Shown one piece after another: positions 10,036 through 52,251 of a stretch of 64,000 bases of DNA. The notes beneath the pieces are model-generated. The model was not told the origin of the DNA and searched no databases. It was given only the letters and a program-made list of their open reading frames with translations. Each line of letters starts with the position of its first letter. Positions within the stretch are counted from its first letter, which is position 1. The position numbers were made by a program, and so were the translations under genes. Location: NCBI RefSeq assembly GCF_964213995.1, contig NC_135818.1:78306001-78370000 (forward strand). Reading direction: 5' to 3'. This DNA comes from Mustelus asterias (taxonomy: Eukaryota).

Positions 10036-10492
10036 CTGAACTGAAATCTGTTTCTGCCACTGCAACACGATTGAGCCACGAACATTCCTGAATGATGACG
10101 TGGGCAACAGAGATTACAGACTGCCACAGTCCAAGAGGTCAGTGTCTCCTGTTTCTACTTGTGCTGTGTTGCTGTGTGTGTGCTGCTAGCACTACAATTT
10201 AAAGCAGGATCTGTTGTGACCGAAGGATGATGAGGTATGTTGGATGCTCTTAATTAAAAGACATGGTGTACATTGGGTGGGAACCTTGCTTGTGTTGGCT
10301 CCAATCTCTTGGTCCCCAAGCTGCAACCCAATGTTCAATGGCTTACGGGGCCCACTCATGTACTTTGACCTGCAGACACCTCCAGCTTGACTGTGGGGTC
10401 TCCAACAGGCCACATCTCCTCCTGGCTCCAGCCACAATTCACACTAGAGGCAAGACTTAGGTGAAAATACCTCCTTGAGATTTAAATGTTGA
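9792..10492. repeat. 145-bp inverted repeat pair (9792-9936 and 10348-10492) around a 411-bp spacer
   Basis: The arms are reverse complements with 4 mismatches counted by eye. Confidence 0.95.
10227..10234 (+). CDS. Exon 1 (ATG ATG AG) of a C1r/C1s/MASP-family protease homologue
   Basis: GGATGATGAG|GTATGT is a phase-2 donor that joins in frame to the acceptor at 11008. A tiny ATG-AG/ATG-TG first coding exon is typical of MASP/C1s/haptoglobin genes. A TATA-like ATTTAAAG lies about 30 bp upstream. Confidence 0.65.
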
Positions 10493-11007
10493 TGGTTTTT
10501 TCCTCAGCAAGGCTGAGAGGCCAGGCCAAATCTCCACTCAAGCATGGTAGTGTTGGGACTCTGAGGAGAGGATAGTTTCAACATGCATGGTCAGGTGTCA
10601 ACTGAAAGGGTTAGGAGTTAAATGCCAAGCTTCAGTATACCAAATGCCATTTTAAGAAGCTGGCAGTTATTTTAAGCAACTTGCAGACATTTTGTGGACA
10701 CTTTTTAAAAATGTTTTCTAGGGCAGTTTTGCATTTTCAACTTTGGCACTGCAGTCTTGCTGAAGGGTAGGATGTCTGTTGCTTTTAAGGCCGGAAAGTT
10801 GTTCTGGATAATGAGAAGGCTCTCATCTAACTCATTAGGCTCGAAAGTCTGAGCAACAATTCACCAAGGGCCTTAGCATCTGGGGTGTGTGGTCCTCAGG
10901 TCAGGCTGGGCCAGAAGTCCTGAAGCTTCCAACCACCTGATCCCACCTGTCCCCATTCCTGGTTTTCTTCAGCAATCATGGCCATCATTCTCTACTCTCC
11001 CTTCCAG

Positions 11008-11195
11008 GCTCCTGACTCTGGTTCTTGCTTTGCTCTGTGACCATTCCATGTCCCAGCTATCCAGAGGTAGATCAGATGTCCCACCAGCCAGTGACCTCCA
11101 AACGACCACCAAACCCTGGGTATCGGAGCAGAATGCCACAGGAATAAGCAAGAATGTGAGCGATGGCACAAGGAATCGGACCTCTGGAGTTCAAG
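11008..11195 (+). CDS. Exon 2: signal peptide plus Ser/Thr-rich N-glycosylated linker of the protease homologue
   Basis: Acceptor tctactctcccttccag|G and donor CAAG|gtaat (phase 1). Encodes (R)LLTLVLALLCDHSMSQ...QNATGISKNVSDGTRNRTSGVQ: a hydrophobic leader and sequons NAT, NVS, NRT. Confidence 0.8.
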
Positions 11196-11199
11196 GTAA

Positions 11200-11590
11200 T
11201 TTCTATCTCTCTCTAAATCTCTCTGTCTCTTGCTTTCTGTCTTTGCTTATCTTTCTTCATTTCTCCCTCTCTCTTACTATCTTCTTTTGTCTCTACCTTT
11301 GATTTTTTTTGTGTCTGCTCTCTCTTTCCCTGCCTGTCCCTCTTCCCCAGATGTTTTCTCTCTCACTGTCTCTACCTTTCATTTTTTCCTCTCTGTCTCT
11401 CTGTCTGTTTGTCTGTCTCTCTCTGCCTGTCCTTTTTTCCACACTCTCTCTCTACCTCTCTATTCTTTCACTTTGTCTAAAATGGTCTCTCTGTTTATCT
11501 CTCTTTCTCCCTCTCTCTGTCTCTCTTTCGCTCTCTCCTTTCTCTCAGTCCCCTTACCCCCTCTCTCTTTGCATGTCTCTTCCTCTTTGG
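11200..11590 (+). repeat. CT-rich low-complexity polypyrimidine tract in intron 2 of the protease gene
   Basis: About 390 bp composed overwhelmingly of C and T. Confidence 0.9.
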
Positions 11591-12389
11591 GTCAGATTTT
11601 CGCTACAAGGCAGGTACTTTTCTGACTCAGCAGATCCAGCTCGATTTAACTTACTGGTCTCGGACGATTTTTGCTCCATGTGGGTGTTGCAGGCGTGGGT
11701 TGTGGGGAAGGAGATGAGGGGGCACCAACCTCACAGATCCTAGATGGTTATGGGAGTGGGTGGGTGCCAAGGCAGGCTGGTTTGAAGGTCTGCCTCAATT
11801 ATCTGGGTCTTCATCATCCCAGTTGTAATAAAGGTGATTGGTTCTTCTGGCCCTTACCCCTCACATCATCTTACAAGACCCAATCCTAAGCTCTACTCAT
11901 AACCTCCATGTTAAGTCATGCCTCTTCCATGCTCACTCACCCAGTACACACAAGATACATAACCAATAAGCCATATAATAACAATGGCAAATGTGGAAAC
12001 TGCTGAGAAGAACAAAGAAATTATCTGTGAAAAATAACTTATTTCTACAACCCCACAAAAGTGTCAATCAGGCAGACAATTAAAGTGTCAATAACAGAGG
12101 CTGCCAACATTTCACATTTCTTAATATTGTCCAAATAAACATTGAAACACAGACAAAAGAGGTCACAGAAAGATCAACTTTTTATAACTGCTTAACGATG
12201 CCAATCAAGCAAAGTCAACAATTCACTTATTAAAACAGATTTCCTAATGAGCTAATGCTTTTATTGGTCTGATCTCATAGCCAAGCATGCATAATCTGGT
12301 CCTTTATCTCTCTCTCTCTCTCTCTCTCTTTATCTCTCTCTTCATCCTACACCCGCTGACTCCTGTTTTCCTTCTCCCCATCTTTGCAG

Positions 12390-13207
12390 TTTGCGGACGG
12401 CCTCCAAACCCGGTGACAATCGTGCAGAGGATAATAGGCGGCAAGCTGGCAGAAGAGGGGAGCTTCCCCTGGCATGTACTGGTGTTGGCAAGGGGTCGGG
12501 GGAGGGCTGGTGGCACCCTGATTGGTGGAGGTTGGGTTTTGACGGCTGCCCACATCTTCTACCCCAAGGGCAGCCTTCGAATAGACCTGGTCCGCCAACG
12601 CAACACCACCCAGATCCGGATGAGCCCAGGCACCAGCCTGCGAGCACGGCTGGCAGGGGCCAACCAGGAGATTGAGGATATCGTGGTGCACCCAGGTTTT
12701 GAGGAGGCACCACACAATTTTGATAACGACATTGCCCTGATCAAGCTGAGGGTAAACCAGGAAGAGGAGGGGGTGATGCCTGCCTGCTTACCCAGGACTC
12801 GGGGGCGTAAGGAGAGTGACCTCTTCCAGCCTGGGAGAATAGGCTATGTGGCTGGCTGGGGGATAGAAGACGGTCGCTTCCTCTGTGACCCGCTGCGCTA
12901 TGTCCCACTGCCCTTTGTCCACCAGAACCGCTGCTTGCAAGCTTTCCAGGAAGCACGAATCTTGGGTTACCGTCCTCCAGTCACCTACAACATGTTTTGT
13001 GCTGGCATTCCCGAGGGGGGTAAGGATGCTTGTGCTGGAGACACAGGTGGGGGCTTCCTAGTACCTGACCCACACTCGGGAGCCTGGTACTTGATAGGCA
13101 TCGTGTCTTGGGGCACTGGTTGTGGGCGGCCGGGACGCTACGGAGTGTACACACGGGTGTCCAGCTACCTCCACTGGATTAACTCCATCATTGCTGCACA
13201 TCCCTAG
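12390..13207 (+). CDS. Exon 3: single-exon trypsin-fold domain, C1r/C1s/MASP-like, with Ser195 replaced by Thr
   Basis: Acceptor tctttgcag|TT in phase 1. VCGRP linker Cys, activation site R|IIGG, WVLTAAH (His57), DIALIKL (Asp102), KDACAGDTGG, IVSWG, YGVYT. No Cys42-Cys58 histidine loop and no introns in the domain, as in C1r/C1s/MASP-2/MASP-3. The spliced CDS is 1014 nt (337 aa). Confidence 0.92.
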
Positions 13208-15289
13208 AGCAAATCTTCCCTCAAACCAACAGCACTGCACAAAATCCTGTTGGTAGGCTTTAGGCTGAATCCGATCTTATTGGGGTTATTATGCGGAGGT
13301 AACAAAATACAACAAATTTTCACAGTCCCCTTGAGGCTCAACCCCATTCCCGCCACTCCAAATTGTGAAGACATCTCACCTCCCCAGTCTGTGGGAGTCC
13401 TCATTTCCCCAAACTCTGATCTCCTTACATCCCCTAAACTATGGGTCTCTTCATCTCCGCACACTGTGGGAGTCCTCACCCTCCAAATTGTAGGCATCCT
13501 CAGCTCTGGCATGTCAGACTAAATGAAAGTATACCATTAAACAGAGGCAATGGAACATATGAACATATAAATTAGAAGCAGCAGAGGATCACTCAGCCCC
13601 TCTGGTCTGCTCTGCTATTTAATAAGATTGTAGCTGACCTGGTTGTGGCCTCAACGCCACATTCTGCCCACCTCCGATACTCCTTTGTTGGTTAAAAATC
13701 GATCTACCTCTGCCTTAAAATTATTCATTGACCCTGCCTCCACCATTCTCTGGGGAAGAGAGTTTTAAAGATAAAGGAATACAAGAGTATTGACGTTATA
13801 ATGCTTGCTTTATGGAACACTGTAAACAACAAATTAATAAAGATCGGGGCACTTTGTGTCCTTTGCAGAATTTCTGTATGACTGAGAAGTGTGATTGGGA
13901 GGATGGGCTGGTGTGTTTTCATGTAATCTCTCTGTTATCTGAATGTGGGTACAGATGGCATCTGAATATTCTAAGATTTCAATCGATTTATGACTTGCAT
14001 TTTCTAAAGCTCCTTTTGGAATCTCAGGAGGTCCTGAAACGGTATACAGCCAATGAAGTGCCCCCGAGGTGGAGTCACTGCTATCATCAGAGCCTTAATG
14101 AGGGCTTGGCATCCATATTAAGGTGTTATGTCCAGAATTGGGACCCACAACCACATCTGAGATCCAACCAGATCATGCAATCGGGGCCTTGAAGAAGTCA
14201 CAATACTTCAGTAGCTCTCACCTGTCGGATTTCCAGTAAAAGCTACGTTTTCTGCTGGTTGACAGGTGGTGGATCAAGGGTGCATTGAACGTTTATTGGT
14301 GTCTCTTTCCCTTCAATGCCTGACTTGTGTGTAGCACCCAGAGATCTGAAAGTTTTGATTTATTGGTGAGATGAGGCAATTTCTGATGCAATCAGCTTGC
14401 AGCTTGTCTCCAGGGATATCAGTTGTTCAACTCCAAGTGATTGTTTCCCTTGAGTCTTTTTTTAATCAATCTGTTCAAAGGATGTAGGTATCACTGGCTA
14501 GGGTTTCTTGACCCGCTGTAGTCCACATAGTGCAGGTACACCGACAGTGCTGTTGGGGAGCGAGTTCCAGGATAAGGACCCGCAATAGTGAAAGAAAGGC
14601 AATACTTTTCCAAATCAGGATGGTGTGTGGCTTGAAGGGGAACTTGCAGATGGTGGCATTCCCATGCATCTGCTGCCTTTGTCCTTCTAGGTGGTAAGTG
14701 TTGTGGGTTTGGAAGGTGCTGTAAAAAGACCCTTGGTGAGTTGCTGCAATACATCTTGTAGATGGTACACACTGCTGCCATTGAGCATCGGTGGAGGGAG
14801 TGACTGTTTAAGGTGGTCGATGGGTTGTGTTGTATGGATGGTGTCAATCTTCTTCAGTGTTGTTGGACCTGCTCTCGTTGCCACAGTAGCCGGTCCAATT
14901 CAATTTCTGGTCCATGGTAACTCCCAAGATGTTGATAATGGCGGATTCAGCAATGGTAATAGCACTGAAGTCAAGGAAAGATAGTTGGATTTTTATTAAA
15001 GATGGTCATTGTCTGGCACTACTATGGGATTGTTATTTAGGACTTGGTTAGCTTGATCACCTGTAGCACCACTGAGCCATTCTTGGTGATAGACATTGAA
15101 GTCCCCCACCTGGAGTACATTCTGTGTCCTTGCCACCCTCAGGGGGTAAGGGGTATGTTGATGGCGGCAGCTGATAATCAGCAGGTTTCCTTGCCCATGT
15201 TTAACCTAATGCCATGAGACTTCATGGGGGTCATAGGTCAATGTTGAGGACTGGTAGGGCAACTCCCTCGTGACTTTATACCACTGTCC

Positions 15290-16332: not shown

Positions 16333-17655
16333 TGTTGGGGAAATTCATAGTAGGTTAAAGAAATTTTAAATAAGCAGGGATTTAAGTTACTAACAAAATA
16401 CTAACGATAAGTGAAATGACCTTAGATTAGACTTACAAGCTAACAGGGGAACAATCTATGGAGAAACACATATAAACACTGCAAGTGATTTAACAAAGTT
16501 TGAGACTTGAACAAGTATTTCTGATTTAAACATGTATTTTGAATCTTTAAAAATGTATTTTAGCTGTATGTTGAAGAAATCTACACTTTAGCTAAAAGTA
16601 GGTTACTGCAAAGCCTAATAGGATAACATATTTGCACCTGCACCACTCACCTGTTTTTACATATAATTGATGCCAGCCCTGCATCTTTGGGTATATAATC
16701 TGGACAGTGTCAAAGGCATCTGTTGGTACCTCAGTGCCAATACATTCTTTGATGCTCACCATACTGAATGTTGGCTCATTTTGTGCGTCAATGGTTTGAT
16801 TATCATCACCACCAGACAGTGTCACTTGGCCAGTCATTTTGTGGATCTTGTTCTGGCGATGTTTGGTGTGCACTCTTAGTCAGTCAATTGGGATACTGTA
16901 CCTGTCCAGCCCCTGGTTCTGCTTCCCCATGATGTCAAACCACTTGGTTTGACCTGTGTTTTCTGTATGGGATAAGAGGCATATTGAGATGAGCCACATT
17001 CTTTAGAACAATGAAAGTACAGAATCTGTAAGTTCTTATCAATGATAGTTACCAGCAGTAAGATTCCCAGAGCCCCTTTATGAATAGGATAGTTCACACT
17101 GTCCAGATATGGCAGGTGCTTTCAAAGTCCTTTATGAATAGAGTTGTTCACATTATCCAGATAAGGCAGGTCTAAGAATGTACATCTGTCTAGTTCGGCC
17201 ATTGATGTAAGCAAGAGTTGTTGGAAACATTAACTTTAACCTCTGTAGCTAAGCATCAGAGGTTGCTAAGCAACAGATGAAGCAGCGTCAGCGACAGAGA
17301 GAGGAAGCATCCGGATTTTACGGACCAATGAAATCCCATGAGGTCAGCAGATAAGAGGCAATTGGCTAAAGTATATGACAAGTATTAACAATGATTGATT
17401 TGTATTGAAAATGGCTGGTTCATAACTAATGGAAGGCAGAAAATGTAAACTTGATCTGTCTGTTGCATTGTAACCTCGGAGTGCTATTGAAAAGCTCAAG
17501 GCCTTCTCTTGTATTAAGGCATTAGACTGCCCAATCCTCATTCTCCCATTGATTGTTGGTTAATAAAGTTGCGTCTTTAACCCGGACACTGGCTTTCATG
17601 AGTCTTTGTATTGGCTGAAGTTTTTGGTGATACCTAGCCTCCAGAGAACCCCACA
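16333..17655 (+). mobile_element. Probable solo LTR inserted in an old SINE
   Basis: Ends TGTTGGGG...CCCCACA; internal ~55-bp direct repeat (about 17072-17172); CCAAT boxes; AATAAA near 17562; host SINE sequence resumes on both sides. TSD is ambiguous (GTTT, with 4 extra nt on the right). Confidence 0.6.
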
Positions 17656-18249: not shown

Positions 18250-19500
18250 ATGATCTGGGTTGCAGAGTTAGGTGGTCTTCCCATGGTGTAAGTATGGGAT
18301 ATACAATGGTACTCTCGGGGGTTCTCACTCTTGTCTTGATGATGCCATGAATGGTGACCATGAACAGGAGGTCCCTGCAATCACTGGAGCTGTAGTGTCC
18401 ACAACATTTCTTTGGTGACTGGGATTATTTGTTAGAACAACACAGTGTAATGGATCCCATGGATGGAATCTCTGAGCCATTGTAGGTGTTGAGTTTGGCA
18501 ATGATTGGTTGAACCATCACTTGCCACTTCTGCGGGTACATGGATTAGTACATAGATAGCACAAAGTGGAAGGATATTTGCACCTGTACCACTCTCCAGT
18601 TTTGCCTATAATTCATGCTAGCCCTGCATCTTTGGGCATATAATTTGGACAGTGTCAAAGGCATCTGTTGGCACTTCAGTGGCCAATAGATTCTTTGATG
18701 CTCACCATACTGAATGCCAGCTCATTTTGTGCGTCGATGGTTTAATTATCATCACCACCAGAGTGTCACTTGGCCAGTCATTTTGTGGATCTTGTTCTGG
18801 CGATGTTTGGTATGCACTCTTAGTCAGTCGATTGGAATGCTGTACCTGTCCGGCCTCTGGTTCTGCTTTCCCATGATGTCAAACCACTTTGTCTGACCTT
18901 TGCTTTCTGCATTGGCAGTTTGTGTCCTCTACAGCCATGTACCTTCCATTCAGCATTAAAAGCTTGGCAATTTCTGGGTGAATGTGTGCCGCCACACTAC
19001 TTGCTTACTAGGCTTTCTTGCACTGGCCATCATGTCATGAATGGATGAATTCCATACAGTCGATAGACTATGGCTCTGTACTTGTATCTGCTTTGTAATC
19101 GTGCTTCCATACTGTAACCTTTGGCTTGGTCCAAGAGATCTTTTTGGAATGCTTTTATGGGGGTAGATGCCACCATGAGCTCAATAATTCTGCCGGCTTA
19201 CTCTATTGCCTTAAAATCACGCCATTGTCTCTGAATCTGCTTATGAATGGGTCAGTGGTCTACTCTGTATTCTGAAAGACATGAATTCCAGACGGTGCAT
19301 TCTGAAATTAAGGGGTATTGGAAATTCTGTGAACTTCCTGTGACTTTTCGCCGGATAAACAGGTCCATCTGTAACAGGAGCAAATAATCAGGGTCTTTGG
19401 TCCTACAGGACTGTGCATTTCTGGTGCCTGCTGCAGTACCTTTACTGGCCACAGCTTGTTTGACAACAAGGGTGTCACTATTGAGTTGTTGCTGCTTCAC
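18250..19500 (-). mobile_element. Decayed Ty3/Gypsy (Mag-like) gag-protease fragment
   Basis: Minus-strand remnants of a zinc knuckle (CGGTHSPRNCQAF...GH), a GTGANIL protease-like motif and VVDTTAPVIAG. Confidence 0.55.
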
Positions 19501-21250: not shown

Positions 21251-22910
21251 CATGGTCGAGTGTTGACAGATTTCACACTTTTTCCAAAAAGCGGTCATAG
21301 CAAAAGGCACACGGAAAATGTAATTCAAGTCATTAACACTCAAAAGCTCAAGTCTTGCTGCAGGCCCATTGATCATTTCACAAAGTTCATTCTCATTGTC
21401 CTGCTAGATACTATGTAGGTGTGGTGTGATGTGCTAATAATTGGAAGTTGGCTATTTTTAAACACACCAGACATAAACATTACCATTTGACATACACAAA
21501 TGAATGACTATGCACAACTACTGTCCCAATAAAGATAATTAGAGTTTTTATATTTGCCTGGATGAGTTTCAATTGCCTAAAAATTTGAAGAGGAACATGC
21601 TAATATTTTTCTTTCCCAAAATGGCCTGGGATCCTTTGTTTATTGCACTTCATGCAGGAAGTTATACATCTTAATATAGTCATCATGATTAAAGGAACAG
21701 GTGCATGGAACAGCACATTTCTTGTCCATCATTCTCCTTTACTTCCTGCACATGGACAGCTTCAGTTACCAAGGAGTCACAGATGGTGCTGCACGTTAAT
21801 GATTGCAGAAACATCCCTATTTCTGACCTTATGGAGGGATGGTCAAGGTTGAAGCAGCTTTAGAGATTTGGGCTCTAAACATTACCCTGAGGAGCTCCCA
21901 GTGATGTTCTTGGGCCGAGATGATTGGGCTCCAATAACCGTCTTCCCTTGTTCTAGGTTTTTCCCACAGATTCCCGTCAACCCTTTGAGTTTGTGAAGGC
22001 TCCTGGATACCATGCTGAAGAAGGGAAAGGGTTAATTTTTTTGTACTCAAAGTATTTTGTACCTAAAGGGTTAACGGATTTTGTACCTAGAATGTATCAC
22101 AAACATAACCCTTCATTGTGGCTAATCTCCCCAGGTTTATACTGCTCCTGGCATCAATATAAATTATTTATTCATGGTTTCATTCTTTCATTCGTGATCA
22201 AGGACTGTTAAATGGACTTTAATTCATGGCTGGTCTGGAGTTTGCTTCGTGACTGGTATTATGAGCCATGATATATAAATATCCACACTTCTTATGTTCA
22301 GTGAGAGATCTGGTGAACCGCTGTTAAGGTACCAGGTCTCTCCCAAAAACTTTTGAGAATAAAGCTCACTGTACTTTGACTTAGTAACTATCTCAGAGGT
22401 ATTATTTACCTACAACAATTTGGTGCCGAAACCTGGGAATTGTTTGCGGGCTCAGGTTGAATGGCCACAACCTGGGTACTGGAATAGAGTTCCGAACCTA
22501 ATAGGATGAGTCAAACTACAGTGGGTGATCATACGTGATGAGAGAGTGTGAGTGAAAGGAGTCTGAACTGAACACATACAGACAAGGAGGTGTTTGTTTC
22601 TTATACTCAGCCTTAGACCGAATGTTAAGAGGCCAGGATTTTGAAGTGGGTATAAAGACTGGAGAAAAGTTGCCTGAGGTGTGATGTTCAGACGTGAGTG
22701 AGAGAAAGACTATCTGAGTGATCACCGGAGTAGAAGCCGGCTTAATGATGTAAGCTTAATAGTGTAAGTTTAATAGTGTAAGCGGTGGTACGGAGGATTT
22801 GATCACCCCTGACAGGTAACACCGGACTCTGATAAGAGCGACCTAGGAGGGGAGAGCAAGAAGGGAGAATAGAAGACTCCAGGTGGTGCGTATAAAACCT
22901 TATCTGTATT

Positions 22911-24089
22911 ATGGCGGGATCACAAGGACAGTGGGGACCACCGAAATCCCTGATAAACGAATATATGACTAAGAGGGACAGATTCATTAAACAGGTGATA
23001 AAAGGGGGGAGGAATTCATCCCACCCACTAGACCAACAATGAAAATGGTTGGAAAAAGAAAAGAAAGATAGAACTAAGAAAATTGGAGTTCTCTTAGTTC
23101 ACCAATTGGCCGGATTAATTGAACAAGTCTCAGTCTTGGGTAAGAAATGGGCTGACGACAAAGCAAAAACTAAATTGTTGGGAGCATGCAATAGAGAAAT
23201 AGAAAGAAGAAACAAGACAAAGAAGATAGGAGTATTGTTAATACATCAGTTAGCTGGACTAATTGAACAAGTAGTCGCCTCCACTAAGAAGTGGAGTGAG
23301 GATAAAGAAAGGATTAGGGAGTTAGAATCCAGAGTAAGGGAACTGAAGAAACAAAACCAATTATTAGAAGAAAAGCAATGGAGAGGGGAAACCGTTCCTC
23401 TACCTCCTTATGAGTCCACACAACAGGGACTAACCGCTCTTCCAGAGGAGTGGGAAGTGCCAGTAACACAAGGGGGAACAGATGCGCAGCCAAAAGTAAA
23501 TTATGAACCCTTCACCCCAGGTGAGAGACAGCAGATAATGGTTTCCCTGGGTAAATTACAACCTAGAAGTGCAAACACTAAATTCTGGGAAGAATTAGAC
23601 ACAATCTGGGTAGGACATCAATTACACCTGAGAGACGTACACCAGCTGATCAGGGCAGCCTGTCCAGCAGGTAAGTGGAGGCAGGTAGCAGGTGGACCCG
23701 CCGTTCCTCCAGCACAGGATTATAGTGGGGGATGGTGGACACATGTAGTCACCCTAACATCAGAAATAGATGCCCAACAGACACCCTTCACCCAGTTTAA
23801 GGCAGAAATTCAGAGACTGTTAGGGAATGCTCCTACTAACTGGAGCGGAATAACCACAACAAAGCAGCTAAAAAGGGAAGGAGCTTCTGAATATGGGGGA
23901 TGGTTGTTCAAGGTATATCAGGAGTGCTCAAGACAAGGAGACCCAGGTTGAGGAGATTGAGCGTTCATCCAGGCTTTTAAGGATGAATTCTTTAGTGTTT
24001 ATCAAAACATCCTAAAATTGGGGGTGATCGTGTCCCAGGATTACGATGAGTTGGTAGAGTGGGCTAGTGGCATATCTGGAGCTGGATAG
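22911..24089 (+). pseudogene. gag: ERV gag, interrupted by in-frame stops
   Basis: ATG at 22911 is in frame with the 300-aa ORF, with one TGA at 23040 and further TGAs from 23949. Contains a coiled coil, an LPPY late-domain-like motif and a major-homology-region-like KQLKREGASEY. Confidence 0.75.
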
Positions 24090-25619
24090 GAGAAATCTTA
24101 GTTTTTGTATTTCAATGTGTTGTGTGGTCTGGTTGCTAGTCGAATGTAAGTGGTTGTTGTTGTATTAGATTGAGAGCAGGAGTTGTTGTAGCCTGTTTGT
24201 TCTTGTGGAATGTTTGTTGCAGGCAGTGGATGCAGTGCTTTGCACCTTAGTTTAGCCTCAGGGGAGCTGGGGAAGTGTTAAAACTGTTTAAAATTAAAGT
24301 GATAAGATTTCTTGAATTTACTTCTGTTTTGAGTTTAATTACAGTTTGGAAGAAAGAAGAATGAAAGTGACTGTCTTAATCCACGTTCTGTATTCTCTTT
24401 AATTGTTTATTGACATCTCAGTTTAAGATGTTAAGTTTGAATGAATGTTGGAAGCTTCCATGTATGCCTGTGTGTGTTTAACAAAGTTGTTTGCTTTGGT
24501 GTTTTGATGTTCTTCCCCTACTTATGATTTTACAATAATGGGTTTGATACAGAGTTTAAATAAAATTGGAAGGTAAATTGAAATTTCAAAATCGAAGTAC
24601 ATAAATTGAAGTTTGAATAGCCAATTTGAATTTTGAATAAACCTGTGTTTAAATTTTGTTAAGAAAGGATTTAAACCTTGGAGGGAGCCATGTGCTCTCT
24701 CCTTTGTCTTGAAGTGAAAATTATAAGAGTTAGTTGAGAAGTTAAGAGAAGAAATTAAGTAATTTTGTGAAAAGGTAGAAAAGCAGGAACAAAAGAATGA
24801 GGTAAATATACTGTCTATGAGTCAGTTTGAAGTATATTAAGTTAGTGAAAAGATTCAAAGTTTTGATTACCCCAGGTTCCAGTAGGAGATTAATCAATTA
24901 AAATCTCAGTTGCCAATGCAAGTTGCCCTTACAAACGTCTGATAATTTAGTATTCTGTAACTGGTTAAAATTATGTACTGCCATTGGAATTTTATATGCT
25001 ATCTATTCAAAGTTTTCCAAATATAGAGCATTGCCAAGCTTAAAATCTAGCCAGTTAAAATCAAACCAAAACATTACTGATTAATTAATAAGTATGTATT
25101 GTACCTACTTTGGTTTTGATTTGGCACCTGTTGTTTTCCTCGAGTGCGGGGTTTTGATCTGGAGCTTAGTTTAAAATTGGAAACGGCTTGGATTAAAGGG
25201 GTTTGGATATTACGGTTTTGATGTGTAAAGTGGTATGATACAACTGCCGCTTGATTATTTTTATCATGCAGTATAGCACTGTCATATAGACCCAAGAATA
25301 AAATCAAATCCTGAAAAGTCTTCACCAATTTTGTATAATATAGTTATATATTATATGTTGTGTATGGATAAAACATAATTCTGCAGGAGCTTCCTGTTTT
25401 CCTCGCCATACAAATGATCAAATTAGATATAATGTAAGAGTACATCATATGAAGATTGGAGCTGTATGGCATGTGATTTTAATGGGGAATGCGATGTCTT
25501 TTGATGGGATTACATACAAATGAATGGATGTCCAGCTGCAGCCAAAAAGCCAGTGTAAAGTGTTACTTAATTCACAATAAGCTTTCTATGGAAGGGGGAA
25601 TGTGTAGTTAACTGTATAA

Positions 25620-25970
25620 TGTACTAGCTAAAGCCATACAGACATCGGGAAAATGTGGACAGAGATATTTCCCACTATACTGATGAGGCTAAGAGTTACC
25701 ACAAACCGGACAACCAGATTAATCCCTTATGAATTAATGACAGGACGGGCGATGATGTAGGTTCACTAAAGGATGAATTCAGGAGATATGTTTTGGAACT
25801 AAGCACCCAACTAAAAGGGATGCGCAAATTGGTAAAAGACAATCAGGAACAAAGAGCCACAGAGAGAGAGCTTGAAATGCTCCCTGACGGGTGGGAAGTT
25901 GCGACCTAGTAAAAGCACGACCTGACAAACCTGGGTTCGCCCCTAAATGGAAGGGCCCCTATGAGGTTAA
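25620..25970 (+). pseudogene. ERV integrase C-terminal remnant
   Basis: LMRLRVTTNRTTRLIPYELMTGRAM and PKWKGPYEV (GPY/F motif). Confidence 0.75.
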
Positions 25971-26115
25971 AAATTGTGTAGTGTGCTTAATTCACAGATA
26001 TGTGAGACGGTTGACCTCCAAGCAAGCTGAACGGGTTTGCGGGAAGTTGTGCTCGGGCGGTATAGCCTTTGGTCCATTGTATAACGGTCACATGGGTTAT
26101 TAGTCAAGTGATAGG

Positions 26116-27530
26116 ATGATTCTTTTGCTGCTTCTCACGACCCTTGCCCTGCTAGTCACGGAGGGGAAGTATAGATGGAATTGTGTAGACTTGGGGATAG
26201 AGCATCACAAGCATCTCTGTAACGATGATTCTGTCTATTGTAACCTTCCGACACATGGAATAAGCCTCTGGGAGGTAACCCGTAGGGACCGCTACTCGGG
26301 ATTCCTTAACCATACCATGTTGCATTTCTGTTGGAGGGGCGAGGTGATTGGCGTCTCCCATGCAATGTAACGTGGTGTAACTGGAATTTTCGGTGTTTAG
26401 CTGAGGGACCGGGATGGACCTGTACCCGGCAACAGCAGAAGTTCTCGGGAGGATGAGTACATCAACATGAGATTTGGCCGATCCATGCGATCATTGTACC
26501 AATCCTCTAAAATCAGACCCCATCACATGAACACTTTCATGTATATGTCTCACTTGTATGCATTACAGTCAAATTTGAGCAAATGCTGGGTTTGCTTACA
26601 TATTCCCATGCACGGAGGAAAGGGGGGAAAGTCCGTCATTCCCTATCCCTTTGTCAACTCCGGGAATAGTAGAATGGATTTTGAATCAGAATGGAACCCA
26701 AGACGGGACAAGGAAAATGACATTTAAAACCCCATCAGGCATGTTGTGAAAAACCAACAAGGGGGGATCTATCTGCTTGGTAAGAAACAGAACCATACTT
26801 GTTAAGCCATAGCTACTGTACCCAGCAGGTTAATGTCATCAGTGGTGCCTGGGCTTTGGTGCAACAGATTACAATTCATTGCCCCATTGCTGATGTCCTG
26901 GTCAGCCTCTCCGCTACTTATATGAGCAGCATGACTGCATATAATGATACCTATTTTGTCTGTGGAGACAATGGCTTCCCTGGGATTGGGCAGGATCGTG
27001 TTATTTGGCATATGTGGTACCCTATATTCACCATGAGTGAGACAGAACGGTTCTTTATGATAGCCTTCCCACTTTATGGGACAGCAAAAGCAGCTCAGGA
27101 ACTTATACATATGGCCTCGACCTTAGAGAGAATTGCAAATGAAACTAGAGACAGGTTCGAGGTGAGCACAGCCTTCTCTGAAGTATCAGCCGAGGTTGTA
27201 GCTATCCGGACTGTTGCTTTACAGAACTGATTGACACTTGATTATGTGTTGGCTTTCCAGGGAGGAATGTGCTCTATAATTGAATCTGAATGCTGCACGT
27301 ATATCCCAGATGATTCGGAAAATATAACTCGTTTGGCAGATCATATCAAATGAGTGGCAAAGACAATACAAGATGAAGGGAGCCAATATCATAACTATAA
27401 CCCTCCGGGATGGCTGGGGCAATGGTTCAGGTCGTGGGGATCATACCTGATGCATGGGTTGATTGTATTAATTGTAATTGTTATTGCTTGTTGTATTTGT
27501 ATGACATTATTGAACACATTGTAATATGGT
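26116..27530 (+). pseudogene. env: ERV env, frameshifted
   Basis: Leader MILLLLLTTLALLV, CWVC motif, heptad region, immunosuppressive domain LQN*LTLDYVLAFQGG, CX6CC (CSIIESECC) and a hydrophobic transmembrane segment. Confidence 0.88.
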
Positions 27531-29582
27531 AACAGTCTGAATTATGCCAAGTGCAAGTGTACAGGCAGAAGGGGCAGACTTCCTGACGAAGGAGGTAGGC
27601 CCATATACTGGTAACATTTGGCTCTGAATTGGTCATGGGGCTATGCTTGGACCTGGCCCCGACCAAAAGGGGGGATTGAAGAAGGGAAAGGATTAATGTT
27701 TTTTGTACTCAATGTATTTTGTACCTAGAATGTATCACAAACATAACCCTTCATTGTGGTTAATCTACCCAGGTTTATACTGCTCCTGGCATCAATATAA
27801 ATTATTTATTCATGGTTTCATTCTTTAACTTTTATTCTTATGAAGACAGTCAAATGTAAATGTTGTTTGTAGGCATTGCAAGTCTTACCTTTTCTACAAG
27901 CTTGTGTGTGATTTGAACAAAGAAAGCAGCTACAAGATGTGGAGTGTGATAACGGCCGTTTGACAGGAAGACTCCCCGCTGGGATCGCCACGGGCCACAC
28001 AGTCACTTCAAAGGAAAAGCCACGGGAAGAGCAGGGAACCTAAGACTGCGTCGTGACTACCGCTGCCAGAAGACTGGTGCTTCATCACCTGAGAATGCCA
28101 GATACACTCTGGTTTATGGTCAGAGGCTGCCAGATGCATCGTGCTTTGTGATCAAGGGCTATTAAATGGACTTTAATTTATGACTGGTTTGGAGTTTGCT
28201 TCGTGACTGGTATTATGAGCCATGATATATAAATATCCACATTCTTGTGTTCAGTGAGAGATCTGGTGAACTGCTGTTAAGGTGCCAGGTCTCTCACAAA
28301 AGCTTTTGAGAATAAAGCTCACTGTACTTTGACTTACTATCTCAGAGGTATTATTTACCCACAACAATGCTCAGTCAAATGCTGCCTTGAGGCCAGGTTA
28401 GTCACTATTACCTTGTATCTTGAATTTAGCTCATTTATCCATGTGGACCAAGTCTATAATAAGGTCTGGAGCTAAGGGGCCTGACTGGAACCCAAACTGT
28501 TGAGTAACGGTTGACAGCACCATTAACAATATGTCACTATACTGGTATTATTTGGCCAGATTGGATTTGTCCTATTTTTGTAGACAGGACGTACCTGGAC
28601 AATTCTTCAGACTGCCAGGTAAATGCCAACTGAAATGGCAGCTAGCTCTGGAGCAGTCTCAGTATTATTGCCAGAATTCTGCCAGAGTCCATAGCCTTTG
28701 TTGTGTCATGTGCAACCAACCATTTCCTGATACCACAGAGTGAATCAAATTGGCTGAAGATTTGTGATCATCTTCTCACTGAAGATGCTGTAAATGTTTC
28801 AGTCTTAGCACATCAGTGCATAAGACATCTTATCATTGATTATGTGAAGGCTCCTTTGCTGGTTAGTTCATTGTCCACTATGCCCAACTGAATGTGGCAG
28901 GACAGCTGAGCTTTTAGCTGATCCTATGGTTGTAGGATTGTTTAGCTCTACATATCGCAGGTATGTGTTGCAGATTCACCAGCTTGGCACTTTTTCTTTT
29001 AAAAAAAGTACTGGTGCTGCTCCCCTGCACTCTTTGTTGAACCAGGGTTACCAGGGTTGAACCTGACTTAATGGTAATGGCAGAGTAAGGAATATATCCA
29101 GCCATGAGGTTAAAGACTGGTTGAATACAATTCAATGAAGGTTGAAAGGACAAAAAGCAGGAAGCCTGAAACAATCAATCTTTGCCATGAGATCAGCACT
29201 AGTGTAGTAAGAGACACATGGAAGGAGGTTGTGATGTACATGGCAGAGTTTGAATGGCATCTCAACAACTGTAAAGTTGTTTACAGTTCTGAATTAGGAG
29301 AGATTTAAACTGTCCATCCCTCCATTTAAACATGAAAACACCATCAACCAAACACAACATGTAGTTAATTTCTTTATTGAGCCAGTCAGGTTAATTTACA
29401 AAACCAATCTTAGTATTAAAGCTAAACACAGGTCACAATGTTCATCTAGAAATTGTGTTGCAATGTTACAAGTACAAGATTTTGTAAAAATATGAAAAAT
29501 CTCAAAGGCATCTGTTTTAATTTCCATTGTGCAGCTGACCACAACATCCAAACTATTACGGAGTCACGTTCAGCAGTCTGGC

Positions 29583-29669
29583 TTAGCTGGAGATCTTGAC
29601 AGGAATCACCCAGCAGAAGATATCGTTTTTATCATCATCCTTCAGCTCCCATTTAACCTCCAATTCAAC
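29583..29669 (-). CDS. NPC2: NPC2 copy B exon 4 (to stop codon)
   Basis: gttaccag|VELEVKWELKDDDKNDIFCWVIPVKISS*; total 149 aa. AATAAA on the - strand at 29373-29378. Confidence 0.93.
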   Translation of the reverse strand, partial: VELEVKWELKDDDKNDIFCWVIPVKISS

Positions 29670-31519
29670 CTGGTAACGGTGGTGGGGGAAAGAAAGGTGT
29701 GGAGAGGATTAAGAGAATCTTGCTTGATCCACTGAAAACCAATTCACTTAAAATCTGACATGCTAATCATTTACTTCTCGAGTATCAGTCTCAATACTCC
29801 AAAGGCTTCGCAATTCAGATGCAATCATAGTCGTGTACAAAACTTTAGAACTATCCGCTCCCATCACTATTTGTCAACTAAAAACCAACTTTTGCAATGC
29901 TTTCCACCCACGTCTCACTTCCCTTTGCCAATTCCCTTTTTTGTCCACCCAAGAAAACTTATGTACAACTTCACTTCCAAAATCTAAACTGTCCTGCCTT
30001 TGGCTATCCATTCATTCTCTTCTGTACCCCTCAACAGCAACCTCACCCCCGTCTCTGATGCCTTAGTCCTATTAAAGCCTATGCAGTCTCTCATCCTGGC
30101 CATTCTCCTGATGCAGCCCTCATCTTTATGACCTCAAGCCTGAGGTTTGGATAATGTGGACAACTGATTTGGTCATTTACTGCCAGATCTGGCTGGATCA
30201 CAAAGCCAGAAACTGCTCCAAAATCATCTTTCAATGCAAAGATAACCTTTAACAACTTTCCTCTTTTGACCACTCTCCCCGTCTCTCCACCATCAGCAAC
30301 AAACAAAGACTTGATCAAGATTAAGACTATTTGATCAGATGCCTGCCATGTCCTTTTTCCTCCCTGCCCAATGAGCCAAGCTTCTAATTTGTCTCCCTGC
30401 CCTAAACTCTTTGCTCTAGTTTCTGTCCTGCCTCTTGCTGCATCCCTCAAAATAATTCCTGCTTGATCTCTCTATCCTTGCAACTGACAACTTCTCTTCA
30501 CCAAACTCCAGTTAAATTGTTGGCTCCCAATTCATACCCATCTTTCCAGAAATTGCCACTCTTGACTCGTAAGCGGTCTCTAAACTGGCAGCTTGCTTGT
30601 CCAACAACCAGTTCTGGGCGAGTTGAAATATCCTCCAACTGAATATTGGGAGGTTCAGAGCTATTGTCTTAGTTTCCTGCCACAAATTCCATTCCGCGAA
30701 TCATAGAATCCCTACAGTGCAGGAGAGAATATTTGGCCCATCAAGTCTGTACCGACTCTGATAAGGCAAGGGTAAGATGCTCTATCCCCGTAATCCCATG
30801 CATTTACTACACTAAATCCCTTAAACTATACATGTAGGGACGCTAAGGGGCAATTTAGCAAGGCCAATCCACCTATTTTGCACATCTTTGGACTGTGGGA
30901 GGAAATTAGAGCATCCAGAGGAAACTCACGCAGACACGGGGAGAATGTCAGACTGTCACCCACACCTGGAATCAAACCGAGGTCCCTGGCACTGAGGCAG
31001 CAGTTGGTGCCCTATTCATAAGCTTGGGTCATATCTGACCCTGAGATGACTTTCCAACCACAAATCTTCATTATTCTTTCCATCTCTAAACCTGCCTCTG
31101 ATACCGAAATCCTCAACCAATCATCTGCTGCCCTTAGACATAATTTTCCAACTCACTCCTGGGAGTGCACAAGAGGCCAGAATTATGAGTGCATACATTC
31201 AGCTGTCTGGGTCAATTCCATCGCCAAGGCTCTCTTTCCTCCTTTAAGATGCTCGTGACCAAGCTCATCATGTGGCTCCGTGCTAAATTTGATTTGATGA
31301 TGCTCCTGTAAAGCATCTTAGGAAGTGTTAAAGCTGCTATAGAAATACAAATTGTTCTTCAAGCTGCCATTAATCTGCAATCCAAACCTGGGGTAAATAA
31401 ATCACAAGCTCCAGTTTTTTCTGACCTGCAAAGTCCTGGTTGCTGTCAGAATTTTCCAACTTGGTTCTTAAACCTTACTTGCTTTGCATTTTAATCTTGG
31501 CTTGTCCAGTTACCAATTA

Positions 31520-31860
31520 TCATAGAATCCATAGAATCCCTACAGTACAGAAGGAGGCCATTCGGCCCATCGAGTCTGCACCGACCACAATCCCACCCAG
31601 GCCCTACCCCCACATATTTACCCACTAATCCCTCTAACCTACACATCTCAGGACTCTAAGGGGCAATTTTTAACCTGGCCAATCAACCTAACCCGCACAT
31701 CTTTGGACTGTGGGAGGAAATCGGAGCACCCAGAGGAAACCCACGCAGACACGAGGAGAATGTGCAAACTCCACACAGACAGTGACCCAAGCCGGGAATC
31801 GAACCCAGGTCCCTGGAGCTGTAAAGCAGCAGTGCTAACCACTGTGCTACCGTGCCGCCC
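31520..31860 (-). mobile_element. HE1-type tRNA-derived SINE, full length
   Basis: A box (CAGTGGTTAGCAC), B box (GGGTTCGATTCC) and a GATTCTAT tail shared with the partner LINE. Confidence 0.9.
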
Positions 31861-32049
31861 CTAATGCCCCTGTGCTACCGTGCTACTTCCTAATGGATAA
31901 ATTAAGATCTACATTGGCCCTTTTCAAAATCTACCATCCCAAACAGTTGAGCTGAGGACAAAACAATCTAACAAATACAAAAGTAAAGACGGTCAACAAA
32001 AAAAGCTAGAACAGGGTTTTATTGTGTGAAAAATAAAACTTTAACATTT

Positions 32050-33229
32050 TGTGGTCGAAGGGTCTTTTTCCGGCTGGAGGTCTGTGACCAGTGGTGTTAG
32101 CCTGAAGAAGGGGCTCAGAGCCTCGAAAGCTTGTGTGGCTTTTGCTACCAAATAAACCTGTTGGACTTTAACCTGGTGTTGTTAAACTTCTTACTGTGTT
32201 TACCCCAGTCCAACGCCGGCATCTCCACATCATGACCAGTGGTGTTCCACAGGGCTCTGTACTGGGACCTCTGCTATTTGTGATATATATAAATGATTTG
32301 GAAGAAGGTGTAACTGGTGTAATCAGCAAGTTTGCGGATGACACGAAGATGGCTGGACTTGCGGATAGCGAAGAGCATTGTCGGGCAATACAGCAGGATA
32401 TAGATAGGCTGGAAAATTGGGCGGAGAGGTGGCAGATGGAGTTTAATCCGAATAAATGCGAAGTGATGCATTTTGGAAGAAATAATGTAGGGAGGAGTTA
32501 TACAATAAATGGCAGAGTCATCAGGAGTATAGAAACACAGAGGGACCTAGGTGTGCAAGTCCACAAATCCTTGAAGGTGGCAACACAGGTGGAGAAGGTG
32601 GTGAAGAAGGCATATGGTATGCTTGCCTTTATAGGACGGGGTATAGAGTATAAAAGCTGGAGTCTGATGATGCAGCTGTACAGAACGCTGGTTAGGCCAC
32701 ATTTGGAGTACTGCGTCCAGTTCTGGTCACCGCACTACCAGAAGGACGTGGAGGCATTAGAGAGAGTGCAGAGAAGGTTTACCAGGATGTTGCCTGGTAT
32801 GGAGGGTCTTAGCTATGAGGAGAGATTGGGTAAACTGGAGTTGTTCTCCCTGGAAAGACGGAGAATGAGGGGAGATCTAATAGAGGTGTACAAGATTATG
32901 AAGGGGATAGATAGGGTGAACGGTAGGAAGCTTTTTCCCAGATCAGAAGTGACGTTCACGAGGGGTCACGGGCTGAAGGTGAGAGGGGCGAAGTATAACT
33001 CAGATATTAGAGGGATGTTTTTTACACAGAGGGTGGTGGGGGCCTGGAATGCGCTGCCAAGTAGGGTGGTGGAGGCAGGCACGCTGACATCGTTTAAGAC
33101 TTACCTGGATAGTCACATGAGCAGCCTGGGAATGGAGGGATACAAATGATTGGTTTAGTTGGACCAAGGAGCGGCACAGGCTTGGAGGGCCGAAGGGCCT
33201 GTTTCCTGTGCTGTACTGTTCTTTGTTCT
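32050..33229 (+). mobile_element. Young 5'-truncated CR1 LINE (RT C-terminal half) in NPC2-B intron 3
   Basis: GVPQGSVLGPLLF, KFADDTK; open frame 32233-33149; interrupted at 32099 by a Penelope-like element. Confidence 0.96.
32099..32232 (+). mobile_element. Short Penelope-like element with hammerhead core, inserted in CR1
   Basis: 14-bp TSD TGACCAGTGGTGTT (32085-32098 and 32233-32246); CTGAAGA-stem-GAAAGCT; AATAAA. Confidence 0.85.
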
Positions 33230-33842
33230 ATTTGTTTTAAAGGTATTTTCCACTTTCATTGTATAGGTTCCATAGCAACCAATTCAAGTTTGGACATCCT
33301 ATCCTCTTCCACAATCACACTCCATGGTCAGTAGTGTCCAATCGTGTTTTAGAGTATTGGAGAACCTCTTCCTTACTCTTCAGTAGACTTAATCATATTG
33401 TTTGTTTTTACTAACACTGCCCTGTTCACAAATCTCAATGTGTGAAGATTAGTTAGCTCAGAAAACATTCTACATATGTTGCTTACAGAAAGCACCATAA
33501 ATGAATGATATCATCACCCATACTGAATTCATTAAGAGCTGGGAAAGTAAAGATGATACTCAGCTCATGTTGGGGGGTTCTACAATTCCCTGAAAAATGC
33601 CAAACATCTTTGTAGTCACTTTCGAGGACAACCTCAACACAAGATCCCAACTGAACAATGTATCACCAGATAGCTTGGAATGACAAATTCTTGTTACATA
33701 CTTGTTACAAACAAATCTTTGTTCCAAATAGCTATATTCATTCCTGCAACAAACTCTCTTGATCTACAAATTATTTCACCCTCCTTTTGATAAAGTACAA
33801 GGGATGTTAGTATGCATTCTGATGTTTCATAAAGACACTTAC

Positions 33843-34015
33843 TGATGGGTAGGCGTCCTTTATTGGAAATGAATTGATGTAGTTATACTTCTGCATCTTC
33901 CGGATGGGGCACTGAATCCCAGATTTGCAACCATCAGAGTTTGAAATATGAAATGGAATTGGAAGTCCAGCTAGGATACCATGAACCACAGCCTCGCTTG
34001 TCTGGCTCGAGGTTG
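33843..34015 (-). CDS. NPC2: NPC2 copy B exon 3
   Basis: 173 nt; TTSSQTSEAVVHGILAGLPIPFHISNSDGCKSGIQCPIRKMQKYNYINSFPIKDAYPS. Confidence 0.95.
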
Positions 34016-35749
34016 CTGAAAGAAGACACATCACAGCATAGTTAGTCCACTTTTTAAAAAAAAGTCACAACAGAGTATAGGATCACACGTGCAATTCCAT
34101 TTGGGGTGAGATGGTTTGTTACTTGGATATATTTCAGTTGGCACTATGAAACAATCCAAGAAAACTTATTTTAGAAACACTTGATGCTTTGGTCAGACCT
34201 TGGATGCTCCATTCTAATTGAATGAAACGTATCCAAATTGTTGCTTTTGGAGAACCCATCTCCCTACCATGTGGATAGCTTTCTAACTGCTGCTGGACAT
34301 TTCAACAGGGGTTTAACCACCTCAAACACATTTCAATTGTTAATAGCAAAAGGGAGACTCCCACCAGCCAGAGTTGGATTTAAACGCCATTTGAGAGATT
34401 AAAAAGTACAAGACGAAAGGACATTGATCTGAAGTTTTATAAACAAATGTTGGGGAAGACAAAGCATCAGGATAGCTGATGTCACAATTGATTTATCTTA
34501 TCCAAACATAGAATTTTCCCCAATGCTACGTTTACTTATTAACAGTTGAATATCTGGAATCAATTAATGTGTTTGTGACTGCAGTCTTGAACTTACCTTT
34601 AGCAGTTCCTACACAAGTCCCCTTACATAAAATACCCCATCAAGTTTGCTTCCTTTCAAGAAGAGTTAACGTTGTTTTAACTTTTCCCCCATAGTCTAAC
34701 CCCCAAGTACTAAGAAACTAGATTTCTGGCTCTTCTTTATACTGCAGAGTTGGATATTTTCCTTTCGTCTGAGTGAAATCAAGACATTAGTCAAATGGGG
34801 GCCAGATCAGAGTGTTCGACAACTGCAGGGTGACATCCACAGACTGTACTCACAATTTTGCACTATCGCACAGCATGTTTCACTTTGCTAGTGTCAGGCT
34901 GAAGAATTCACTGACACCTTGTCAGTAAATCATAAAAGTTCATTAGGAGTTCAAGATGTACACCAGCTTTTTAGTATCGCTCACCCTCTCTCTCTGGGTC
35001 TCACAGTCAAGATGTTGCCAATCTTCCTTCCACCAGATGTCGCCAGTCTCTCTGCCAATCTCTCTATAGTTCGTTATTCATTCCTCCAGAGAACGCCCAT
35101 TTATATTCAATGGTTAATTAAACACATCATATAAGGTGGCCGACACCAATTGGTTCTAACCTCTGATCATGCATTGCGCACAAAGTTAGCTGAGAGCTGA
35201 GAATGCAATGCAAGCAGAGCAGCACATGTAACATGATAAGCTTTCAGCAGGGTTTGTCCCGTGTGAAAATGGTAATAAAAGTATACTGTAGAAAATGTTA
35301 TATAAAAAAGGTCAAATAAAAGTAATAAATAGTGGCTTCCAACACTAGCTTGTATGCTGCAAGGATTGCAGTATTGATTAATATAATCATTCCCAGATAT
35401 CTGTCAACCTATTTATATGCCCCCATTCACTACATCACACCCACCCCCATACCCAGTATTGTGTGAAAGACCCTGAACTTCCCCATATTAAATTCCACCC
35501 ATTATCATGCTGCATTTGGAAACATTGACAGTGTCTTTCCTTAACTCAGCTGCTTTATCATACTCTATCACCTCAGTTTGATTGCAGTTGGAAATCTGGC
35601 ATTATATTGGATTTCTGATCAAGTCATTTATGGTTATCAAAAACAATGCTGGGGCCAACAATTAACCTCAAAAAGCTTCAGTTGGTATAACACAATAGCT
35701 CTTCAGGTAATGTCCATTACATCCTTCCTCTCAGCCACCTCCAAGCATT

Positions 35750-37028: not shown

Positions 37029-37133
37029 TGCTGGTAAAGGTGACGTTCACACTGTAGTTTTGTCCTTTGTGAAGAACACATGGCAGTGTGGGGCACGGGG
37101 TGACATCCACTATAATCTGCTCCGCTTTCGAAC
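37029..37133 (-). CDS. NPC2: NPC2 copy B exon 2
   Basis: attgcag|GT...AGCA|gtaagt; 105 nt; [35 protein letters not shown]. Confidence 0.94.
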
Positions 37134-52227: not shown

Positions 52228-52251
52228 GTGAGCTAACAGTAACTGTCAATA

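Follow-up and report, generated by a model that had tools for sequence, protein, structure and literature searches.

What can a protein of the complement C1r family do when the modules that let its relatives attach to C1q or lectins are all missing and a threonine stands in for the expected catalytic serine? This question is raised by a short gene at positions 10227–13207, on the plus strand, of a 64,000-nucleotide stretch of the shark Mustelus asterias (contig NC_135818.1, positions 78,306,001 to 78,370,000; hereafter, the window). A sequence-only reading of the window had described the product as a signal peptide, a glycosylated stalk and a protease domain, possibly an undescribed member of the family at an unexpected locus. 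Here, we tentatively favor the view that it is a C1r-type duplicate without docking modules that acts as a secreted two-chain binder whose catalysis is throttled. Judging from the sequences compared, what stands out is the stable combination of Thr195 (chymotrypsin numbering) and a module-less form across sharks.

A real three-exon short gene, as first observed, is confirmed by the sequence evidence. The exons (10227–10234, 11008–11195 and 12390–13207) all have GT/AG ends and pyrimidine-rich acceptors. Spliced with intron phases 2 and then 1, they give a coding length of 1014 nucleotides, that is, the 337 residues originally proposed plus a stop codon. This translation is identical to an automatic NCBI model from the same species, P0001 (337 residues, "complement C1r subcomponent-like"), which is located on a 91-Mb sequence. 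The coding part of exon 1 also matches P0001; it has two ATGs before its phase-2 donor, whereas the shark orthologues begin with a single Met. Intron 1 (10235–11007, 773 nucleotides, phase 2) runs from GT to AG with a pyrimidine tract, and no module exon was detected in it. Exon 2 (11008–11195), which encodes the rest of the signal peptide and a Ser/Thr-rich tail, is supported by its splice sites and by coding conservation with five shark orthologues (tblastn, expectation value E from 1e-14 to 4e-3). Between exons 1 and 3 there are 12 acceptor-like and 10 donor-like sites, four pairs of which delimit an open exon in the correct phases, and among these four the orthologues match 11008–11195. 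Intron 2 (11196–12389, 1194 nucleotides, phase 1) is CT-rich with GT..AG ends, and exon 3 (12390–13207) holds a linker peptide with Cys67, the entire trypsin-fold domain and the stop codon. Members of this family share a first coding exon of 5 nucleotides, an intron of phase 2 after it and one of phase 1 ahead of the protease exon. Two candidate polyadenylation signals, recognized by motif only, lie further downstream on the plus strand (13536–13841; ATTAAA at 13536 and AATAAA at 13836).

The claim that the introns hold no CUB, EGF or CCP exon also withstood a direct search. A profile of 16 C1r-type heavy chains was compared with the 2849 open stretches of at least 15 residues in the window, and its best match had an E of only 0.7. 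With held-out control fragments, the same profile recovered 17 of 30 (25 residues), 17 of 20 (35 residues) and 14 of 16 (45 residues) at E<0.01. No CUB, EGF or CCP exon was thus detected within the 64 kb, although very short module exons could escape a search of this kind. Supported, too, is the earlier view of the product as a secreted member of the C1r/C1s/MASP/haptoglobin family that, being module-less, would be unable to dock on C1q or lectins; plasma or mucus, as proposed there, may be its location.

At the N terminus, residues 1–18 are hydrophobic and signal-like, and from this hydropathy the signal peptide is probably cleaved after Ser18. The tail that follows (residues 19–66) agrees with the linker of about 48 residues, rich in Ser/Thr and with three sequons, that had been reported: of its 48 residues, 13 are Ser or Thr (27%, compared with 8% for the protease domain) and none is Cys, and the sequons lie at N45, N52 and N59 (11132, 11153 and 11174). 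The word "stalk" fares less well. The sequons are present, but there is no membrane anchor, and the segment is better described as a free N-terminal tail, for which the structure model gives a predicted local distance difference test score (pLDDT) below 50 over residues 1–65, as expected of a disordered tail. Three conserved sequons can likewise be rejected, as each of the six complete orthologues has from one to three and N59 is the sole sequon common to all of them. A decayed CCP module was also considered, given that local alignments to human C1r ran into the tail of CCP2; this was rejected, since none of the six tails beat its shuffles against a profile of 14 CCP-tail sequences (52 to 500 of 500 shuffles equaled or exceeded the score). 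Separately, the carpet sharks Rhincodon (P0003) and Chiloscyllium (P0004) have two extra Cys, residue 50 of the tail and residue 144 of a loop in the protease domain, that may pair as a second disulfide between the chains; of these, the loop Cys alone is present in Heptranchias.

Residues 67–337 form a trypsin-fold domain (Pfam PF00089 Trypsin, E 4.7e-47) encoded in a single exon, and the top Foldseek matches of its predicted structure (predicted template modeling score, pTM, of 0.77) are MASP-3, C1r and MASP-2. A single-exon protease domain without the Cys42–Cys58 bridge is a feature of the C1r/C1s/MASP/haptoglobin family, and exon 3 shows it, with Ala42 and Ile58, when compared with 190 bridge-less domains. 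By site alignment, the activation site is Arg79|Ile80 (12428–12433; chymotrypsin 15|16), which reads Gln-Arg|Ile in all seven sharks that cover it, and a Cys67–Cys198 disulfide of the protein would keep the two chains joined after activation. The catalytic His57 is present (12506–12556, from Ala42 to Ile58), as are Asp102 of the triad (12728–12730) and the Asp189 of an Arg/Lys pocket, followed by Ala192, Gly193, Asp194, Thr195 and Gly198 (13025–13054). The seven whole shark domains all retain Arg15, Ile16, His57, Asp102, Asp189, Gly193, Asp194, Ser214, Tyr225 and Gly226, and have Ala at position 42 and one of Ile, Val, Thr and Ala at position 58. The catalytic motif, nevertheless, is Gly-Asp-Thr-Gly-Gly, in which Thr195 (residue 284, 13043–13045) is encoded by ACA; the C1r trait taken for comparison is an AGY codon for Ser195. 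Thr occupies the Ser195 position in eight of eight shark sequences. The label "protease domain" consequently holds for the fold, but this is not a plain protease, given that every shark orthologue has lost the serine. The domain is also basic in all seven sharks (isoelectric point, pI, 8.3–9.8), and its mean identity among them is 71%, compared with 51% among the six rows of the cartilaginous-fish C1r group. One further cysteine, Cys231 (12884–12886), is unpaired, and a conserved free Cys for dimers was rejected since this residue is confined to Mustelus and is Arg in the orthologues.

The distribution of the gene was followed through three sequence searches (120 matches listed of 405; 120 of 559 for proteins of 476–2000 residues; and 120 of 963) and a profile search of 1.84 billion representatives, with the best 150 listed. 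Among the 120 of 405, seven relatives are 62–100% identical and all belong to sharks, and the next match falls to 49%. The complete short form is found in Mustelus, Cetorhinus, Rhincodon, Chiloscyllium and Heterodontus, and partial models exist in Scyliorhinus and Pristiophorus. Among the longer proteins listed, the one close match (66%) is P0123 of Heptranchias, a fused model without CUB or CCP. In it, the short gene, intact and starting from a Met and signal peptide of its own, comes after a C1r-type protease domain that has Ser195. A signal-peptide exon of its own is conserved in all six complete orthologues, and we take the Thr195 form to span both major shark lineages, Galeomorphii and Squalomorphii. 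Among the best 150 profile matches and the 120 listed of 963, there is no named ray or chimaera orthologue, and the rays listed contribute only ordinary C1r-like proteins (40–43% identity). One 238-residue fragment of very guanine- and cytosine-rich (GC-rich) composition, P0008, has both Thr195 and Gly198 and is sister to the shark clade; on this evidence, the gene may be older than sharks. In the ESM Atlas, P0001 had no entry and the whale-shark orthologue led only to generic arthropod trypsin clusters.

Whether this is an undescribed family member depends on what is meant by a description. None was found in the accessible parts of the searched literature on shark C1r, MASP and haptoglobin (PMC9207270, PMC10707392, PMC6015906, PMC7579410 and PMC6795676 among others, with most subscription journals outside this scope), and the consulted sections of a shark skin proteome paper gave no C1r-like entry. 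Automatic NCBI and UniRef models do exist, however, under three conflicting names: C1r-like, MASP-2-like and haptoglobin-like.

These names raise the matter of descent, in which a C1r origin of the protease domain is favored. Over the whole domain, a shark profile scores 213 bits with C1r, 196 with MASP-2, 180 with a MASP-3-type protein and 177 with haptoglobin among solved relatives. Over the first 64 residues of exon 3, which include a C1r-type activation peptide and a YPK motif after His57, the scores are 61 bits for C1r, 45 for haptoglobin and 36 for MASP-2. Single-sequence scores tie C1r and MASP-2 at about 172 bits. In a 60-row tree, the seven shark domains form one clade (100/97; 100/99 with P0008) and group with the C1r/C1s/MASP family against coagulation proteases (100/99), while the backbone of the family stays open. 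A 32-row tree places the shark clade as sister to cartilaginous-fish C1r with a support of 87/89, and approximately unbiased (AU) tests rejected none of the alternative sisters (MASP-2, C1s, MASP-3 or a newt short form; p 0.15–0.32). With this support and these alternatives, a C1r origin is thus favored rather than shown. Some of the tree labels are our own: the rows called "C1s" hold the first domains of fused teleost c1s.2 models, the "MASP-3" row is a Caranx protein without annotation, and two of the five rows of cartilaginous-fish C1r were assigned by tree placement. Only one row is a named MASP-2. The trees are without haptoglobin, as a motif screen found none among the 471 collected proteins.

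On the reading that we tentatively favor, a C1r-type gene would have been duplicated in the shark lineage, or possibly earlier among cartilaginous fish. The duplicate would have kept the first micro-exon, the signal peptide and the final protease exon, and would have lost the exons for CUB-EGF-CUB-CCP-CCP. Its product would be secreted as a single chain, and a protease of the C1r family or another enzyme of trypsin type would then cleave it at Gln-Arg|Ile. The result would be built like haptoglobin, with the Cys67–Cys198 disulfide tying a short glycosylated chain to a basic one of protease fold. Being module-less, the protein could not join C1. Thr195 would throttle catalysis to little or nothing, so that the protein would work mainly as a binder, and the intact Asp189 pocket may grip an Arg-bearing partner without turnover, as a decoy or scavenger would. 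Serpins, substrates of complement and protease inhibitors of foreign origin are candidate partners.

The Thr195 of all eight shark sequences and the well-conserved, basic domain speak for this proposal, and several published observations bear on it. According to the accessible part of one study, replacing Ser195 with Thr (S195T) greatly compromises trypsin and thrombin, for which a clash with the Cys42–Cys58 bridge was proposed, and Thr is documented at the active site of no trypsin-family protease (PMC8695361). PRSS35 is named inactive for the same Ser-to-Thr change, in the portion of the source consulted (PMC10468140). As for the cut, the text available on prohaptoglobin describes cleavage after P-V-Q-R by C1r-LP, which is needed for tight binding (PMC5856381); the shark protein keeps Gln-Arg|Ile as at that site, a sequence that it also shares with C1r. 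Keeping the other catalytic residues is no proof of activity in this family. Among bridge-less domains in which residue 195 is dead (Gly, Ala, Val or other), 13 of 20 retain R15, I/V16, H57, D102, D189, G193, D194, S214 and G226, and an argument from intact machinery was rejected for this reason. As an observation on the wider family, bridge-less C1r-like domains of teleosts and amphibians often have Ser195 replaced (Gly in 11, Ala in 3, Thr in 3, others besides) with His57 usually kept, a pattern that reads as repeated loss of the nucleophile.

Several points weigh against a throttled binder. Thr195 is one of only 13 positions fixed in eight rows (the seven sharks and P0008), out of 111 at which few other family members share the residue seen in sharks. 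The fixed Gly198 and Ala/Gly192 look like a site fitted to a Thr nucleophile. The accessible text of one report describes TSP50/PRSS50 as an active Thr protease (PMC3344824). And the C1r origin itself stands at the support already given, with its rival placements unrejected.

The first two of these points also support the strongest rival, which is possible, if doubtful: after activation, Thr195 would be the nucleophile of a slow and narrow trypsin-like enzyme. The bridge loss inherited from the family, together with small residues at 42, 192 and 198, would make room for the Thr methyl, and a bridge-less C1r duplicate would have exchanged Ser195 for Thr, with Ala42, Ala/Gly192 and Gly198 becoming fixed to accommodate it. 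In its fuller form, a natural and long-conserved threonine protease of the complement family, serving sharks as a free, slow, Arg-specific processing enzyme, the idea is rather unlikely. The residue counts that bear on it come from 453 domains of 289 named proteins among the 471 collected, with unnamed and human records left out; since the set was gathered by searches with the shark query and includes many rows related to one another, the counts cannot be read as independent samples. Gly198 is found in 8 of 8 sharks and in 3 of 445 other domains, Ala/Gly192 in 8 of 8 and 9 of 445, and Ala42 in 7 of 7. The 13 fixed derived positions include, along with 195 and 198, His30 and Thr45; from the trypsin fold, we take His30, Thr45 and Gly198 to lie near the active site. 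All nine activation and catalytic positions are intact in 7 of 7 shark domains, compared with 68 of 152 bridge-less Ser195 domains, a set that includes many C1RL rows without the activation Arg. Thr195 domains keep His57 in 10 of 10 cases without the bridge and in 1 of 6 with it, although these represent only about three and about four independent lineages. Bridge removal also improved engineered S195T trypsin marginally and corrected the deficit of thrombin in part, as the consulted text of PMC8695361 has it. That rescue is, nevertheless, small. Furthermore, relatives with a dead residue 195 keep His57 too; invariance alone is common, with no change across the same eight rows in 94 of 229 columns; and the CCP modules, which help C1r-family enzymes to recognize substrates, are missing.

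A second rival, which we consider improbable, is that the gene derives from shark MASP-2, not from C1r, and keeps only the protease part, with a function as either a binder or a Thr protease. Two orthologues are automatically named MASP-2-like, the AU test gives a MASP-2 sister a p of 0.154, and single sequences score as described above. In addition, the part of PMC6795676 consulted records a hammerhead MASP2 transcript without a protease domain and MASP2 missing in several cartilaginous fish. The activation peptide and YPK motif, however, are of the C1r type, and the best trees, with their one named MASP-2, place the shark clade with cartilaginous-fish C1r. The Heptranchias gene, moreover, is modeled beside a C1r-type exon.

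It is more improbable still that the protein is a second haptoglobin-like scavenger of hemoglobin, or shark haptoglobin itself. The two-chain anatomy and the Gln-Arg|Ile site are the same, one orthologue is automatically named haptoglobin-like, and haptoglobin is second to C1r over the first 64 residues of exon 3. Against this, haptoglobin ranks behind both C1r and MASP-2 over the whole domain, and His57 is kept in all seven sharks. A nurse-shark haptoglobin record (H9LEQ0) exists, and no CCP-bearing close match appears among 240 matches listed. Finally, that exon 3 is the last exon of a long CUB-EGF-CCP gene reaching beyond the window, the short form being an artifact or a minor isoform, is very improbable: family members do join their CCP exon at a phase-1 acceptor before Val-Cys-Gly, exon 3 has such an acceptor, several truncated models start there, only 10 kb of upstream DNA lies in the window and upstream C1r-type sequence is joined on in the Heptranchias model, but all six complete orthologues have their own signal-peptide exon, the single close match among the 120 longer proteins listed is without CUB or CCP, and what is fused in Heptranchias is a second protease domain and a short gene that is itself intact.

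Returning to the module-less, throttled C1r duplicate, its nearest comparisons are instructive. By sequence, C1r (peptidase S1A; PDB 1md8, 1gpz and 9ekd) is the best solved relative, and structure alignment gives about 36–38% identity to the human C1r region. Both proteins have a single-exon protease domain, no Cys42–Cys58 bridge, Asp189, Tyr225, Gln-Arg|Ile activation and the Cys1–Cys122 link. Unlike C1r, with its heavy chain of CUB1-EGF-CUB2-CCP1-CCP2 in the text consulted (PMC6015906), the shark protein has no such modules and carries Thr195, and its basic domain differs from the pI of 5.5–6.2 in coelacanth, paddlefish, chicken and pig C1r. Haptoglobin resembles it as a secreted C1r/MASP offshoot with a short chain, a protease-fold chain, cleavage after Val-Gln-Arg and loss of the catalytic Ser. 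In haptoglobin, both His57 and Ser195 are lost; the mammalian form joins a CCP to the protease fold, and the teleost form is without CCP; the shark protein, in contrast, keeps His57, has Thr195 and has no conserved free Cys for dimers. C1RL (C1r-LP) is also a truncated C1r duplicate, and marsupial models of it show only a trypsin domain in Pfam. It differs in that it keeps Ser195, usually has a CUB domain and is without the activation Arg, and, as it is nested beside mammalian C1r at 100/99, it arose separately. The marsupial C1RL models (P0401, P0426, P0434, P0450, P0460 and others) have neither a CUB in Pfam nor the activation Arg, and their N-termini may be mis-modeled.

The stripped-down architecture, which was observed correctly, is not unique to the shark gene. 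The newt C1r-like models P0275 (Pleurodeles) and P0376 (Lissotriton), 81% identical to each other, likewise combine a glycosylated N-terminal tail with a protease domain and no modules, and P0275 has a signal-like start. They differ in keeping Ser195 and are 40–43% identical to the shark protein. The 32-row tree places them with tetrapod C1r (95/96), their position is not settled in the 60-row tree, and a common origin with the shark form is not rejected (AU p 0.237). In TSP50/PRSS50, PRSS35 and the engineered S195T enzymes, as presented in the portions of the papers cited above, Thr also replaces the catalytic Ser of a trypsin fold; these belong to unrelated subfamilies, whereas the shark protein is of the complement family, cleavable for activation, and joins Thr195 to the absence of the 42–58 bridge. 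Neither trait is therefore unique by itself, as short newt models exist with Ser195 and Thr195 recurs in one newt and two characiform C1r-like models. Most likely, the anatomy is haptoglobin-like and the descent is from C1r, and the protein lies outside C1r, haptoglobin and C1RL proper: it has neither the modules nor the Ser195 of C1r, and it keeps the His57 that haptoglobin lost.

A natural Thr195 sequence without the bridge, kept across sharks, would allow the question of why proteases use Ser instead of Thr to be put to a protein shaped by evolution. Its natural background is the one in which engineered S195T trypsin and thrombin recover in part, in the account available from PMC8695361. 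If inactive, it would be a further independent repurposing of the C1r/MASP protease domain along haptoglobin lines. Three conflicting database names would also be corrected, and a component would be added to the poorly known complement repertoire of sharks.

The locus had been called unexpected on account of NPC2, which is indeed the neighbor within the window. Downstream of the shark gene, and tail to tail with it, the minus strand carries two NPC2 (ML-domain) genes in tandem. They span 44824–51500 (exons near 51.4, 49.8, 47.6 and 44.9 kb) and 29600–42850 (exons near 42.8, 37.1, 33.9 and 29.6 kb); each has four exons, and Pfam confirmed three exons in all. The surprise is limited to this window, however, since in Heptranchias the gene is modeled directly behind a C1r-type protease exon, on a 40-kb contig. 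This arrangement suggests that the gene began beside C1r and that the NPC2 neighborhood may be secondary. The ratio of Gly, Ala, Arg and Pro to Phe, Tyr, Met, Ile, Asn and Lys, used as a proxy for GC content, is 3.0–3.9 in Heterodontus, Heptranchias and Pristiophorus, and 1.8–2.5 in four species with the gene on sequences of 91–149 Mb; in Heterodontus and Heptranchias, it lies on 358 kb and 40 kb, respectively. Such values agree with the gene having moved once, out of a GC-rich region and onto a large chromosome, although this is an indirect argument from a single event. A look for motifs of ISCA2, the usual neighbor of NPC2, gave nothing convincing in the window.

The remainder of the window holds features of other kinds. 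A CpG-rich, promoter-like stretch with CCAAT and cAMP-response-element-like (CRE-like) motifs lies just upstream of the first NPC2 gene (51650–52250), and no gene was identified on its far side. Between the shark gene and the second NPC2 gene, there is a retrovirus-like element of about 6.3 kb on the plus strand (22020–28370), with terminal repeats that are 93–97% alike, the 3′ repeat being about 315 nucleotides longer. Near 22420 it has a stretch resembling a primer site, and near 27665 a purine tract; a gag-like frame of 302 residues (23043–23951) and env-like pieces near 26400–27230 were labeled by eye, with no Pfam match, and no long pol frame was found within the element. Many fragments of long interspersed nuclear element (LINE)-type reverse transcriptase are also seen (32172–33149, and at 15.3, 35.9, 53.5–54.5 and 57.4–58.0 kb), one of them confirmed by Pfam RVT_1. 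Finally, a local duplication of about 320 nucleotides (16655–16971 and 18600–18915) has copies that are 90–93% alike and 1945 nucleotides apart.

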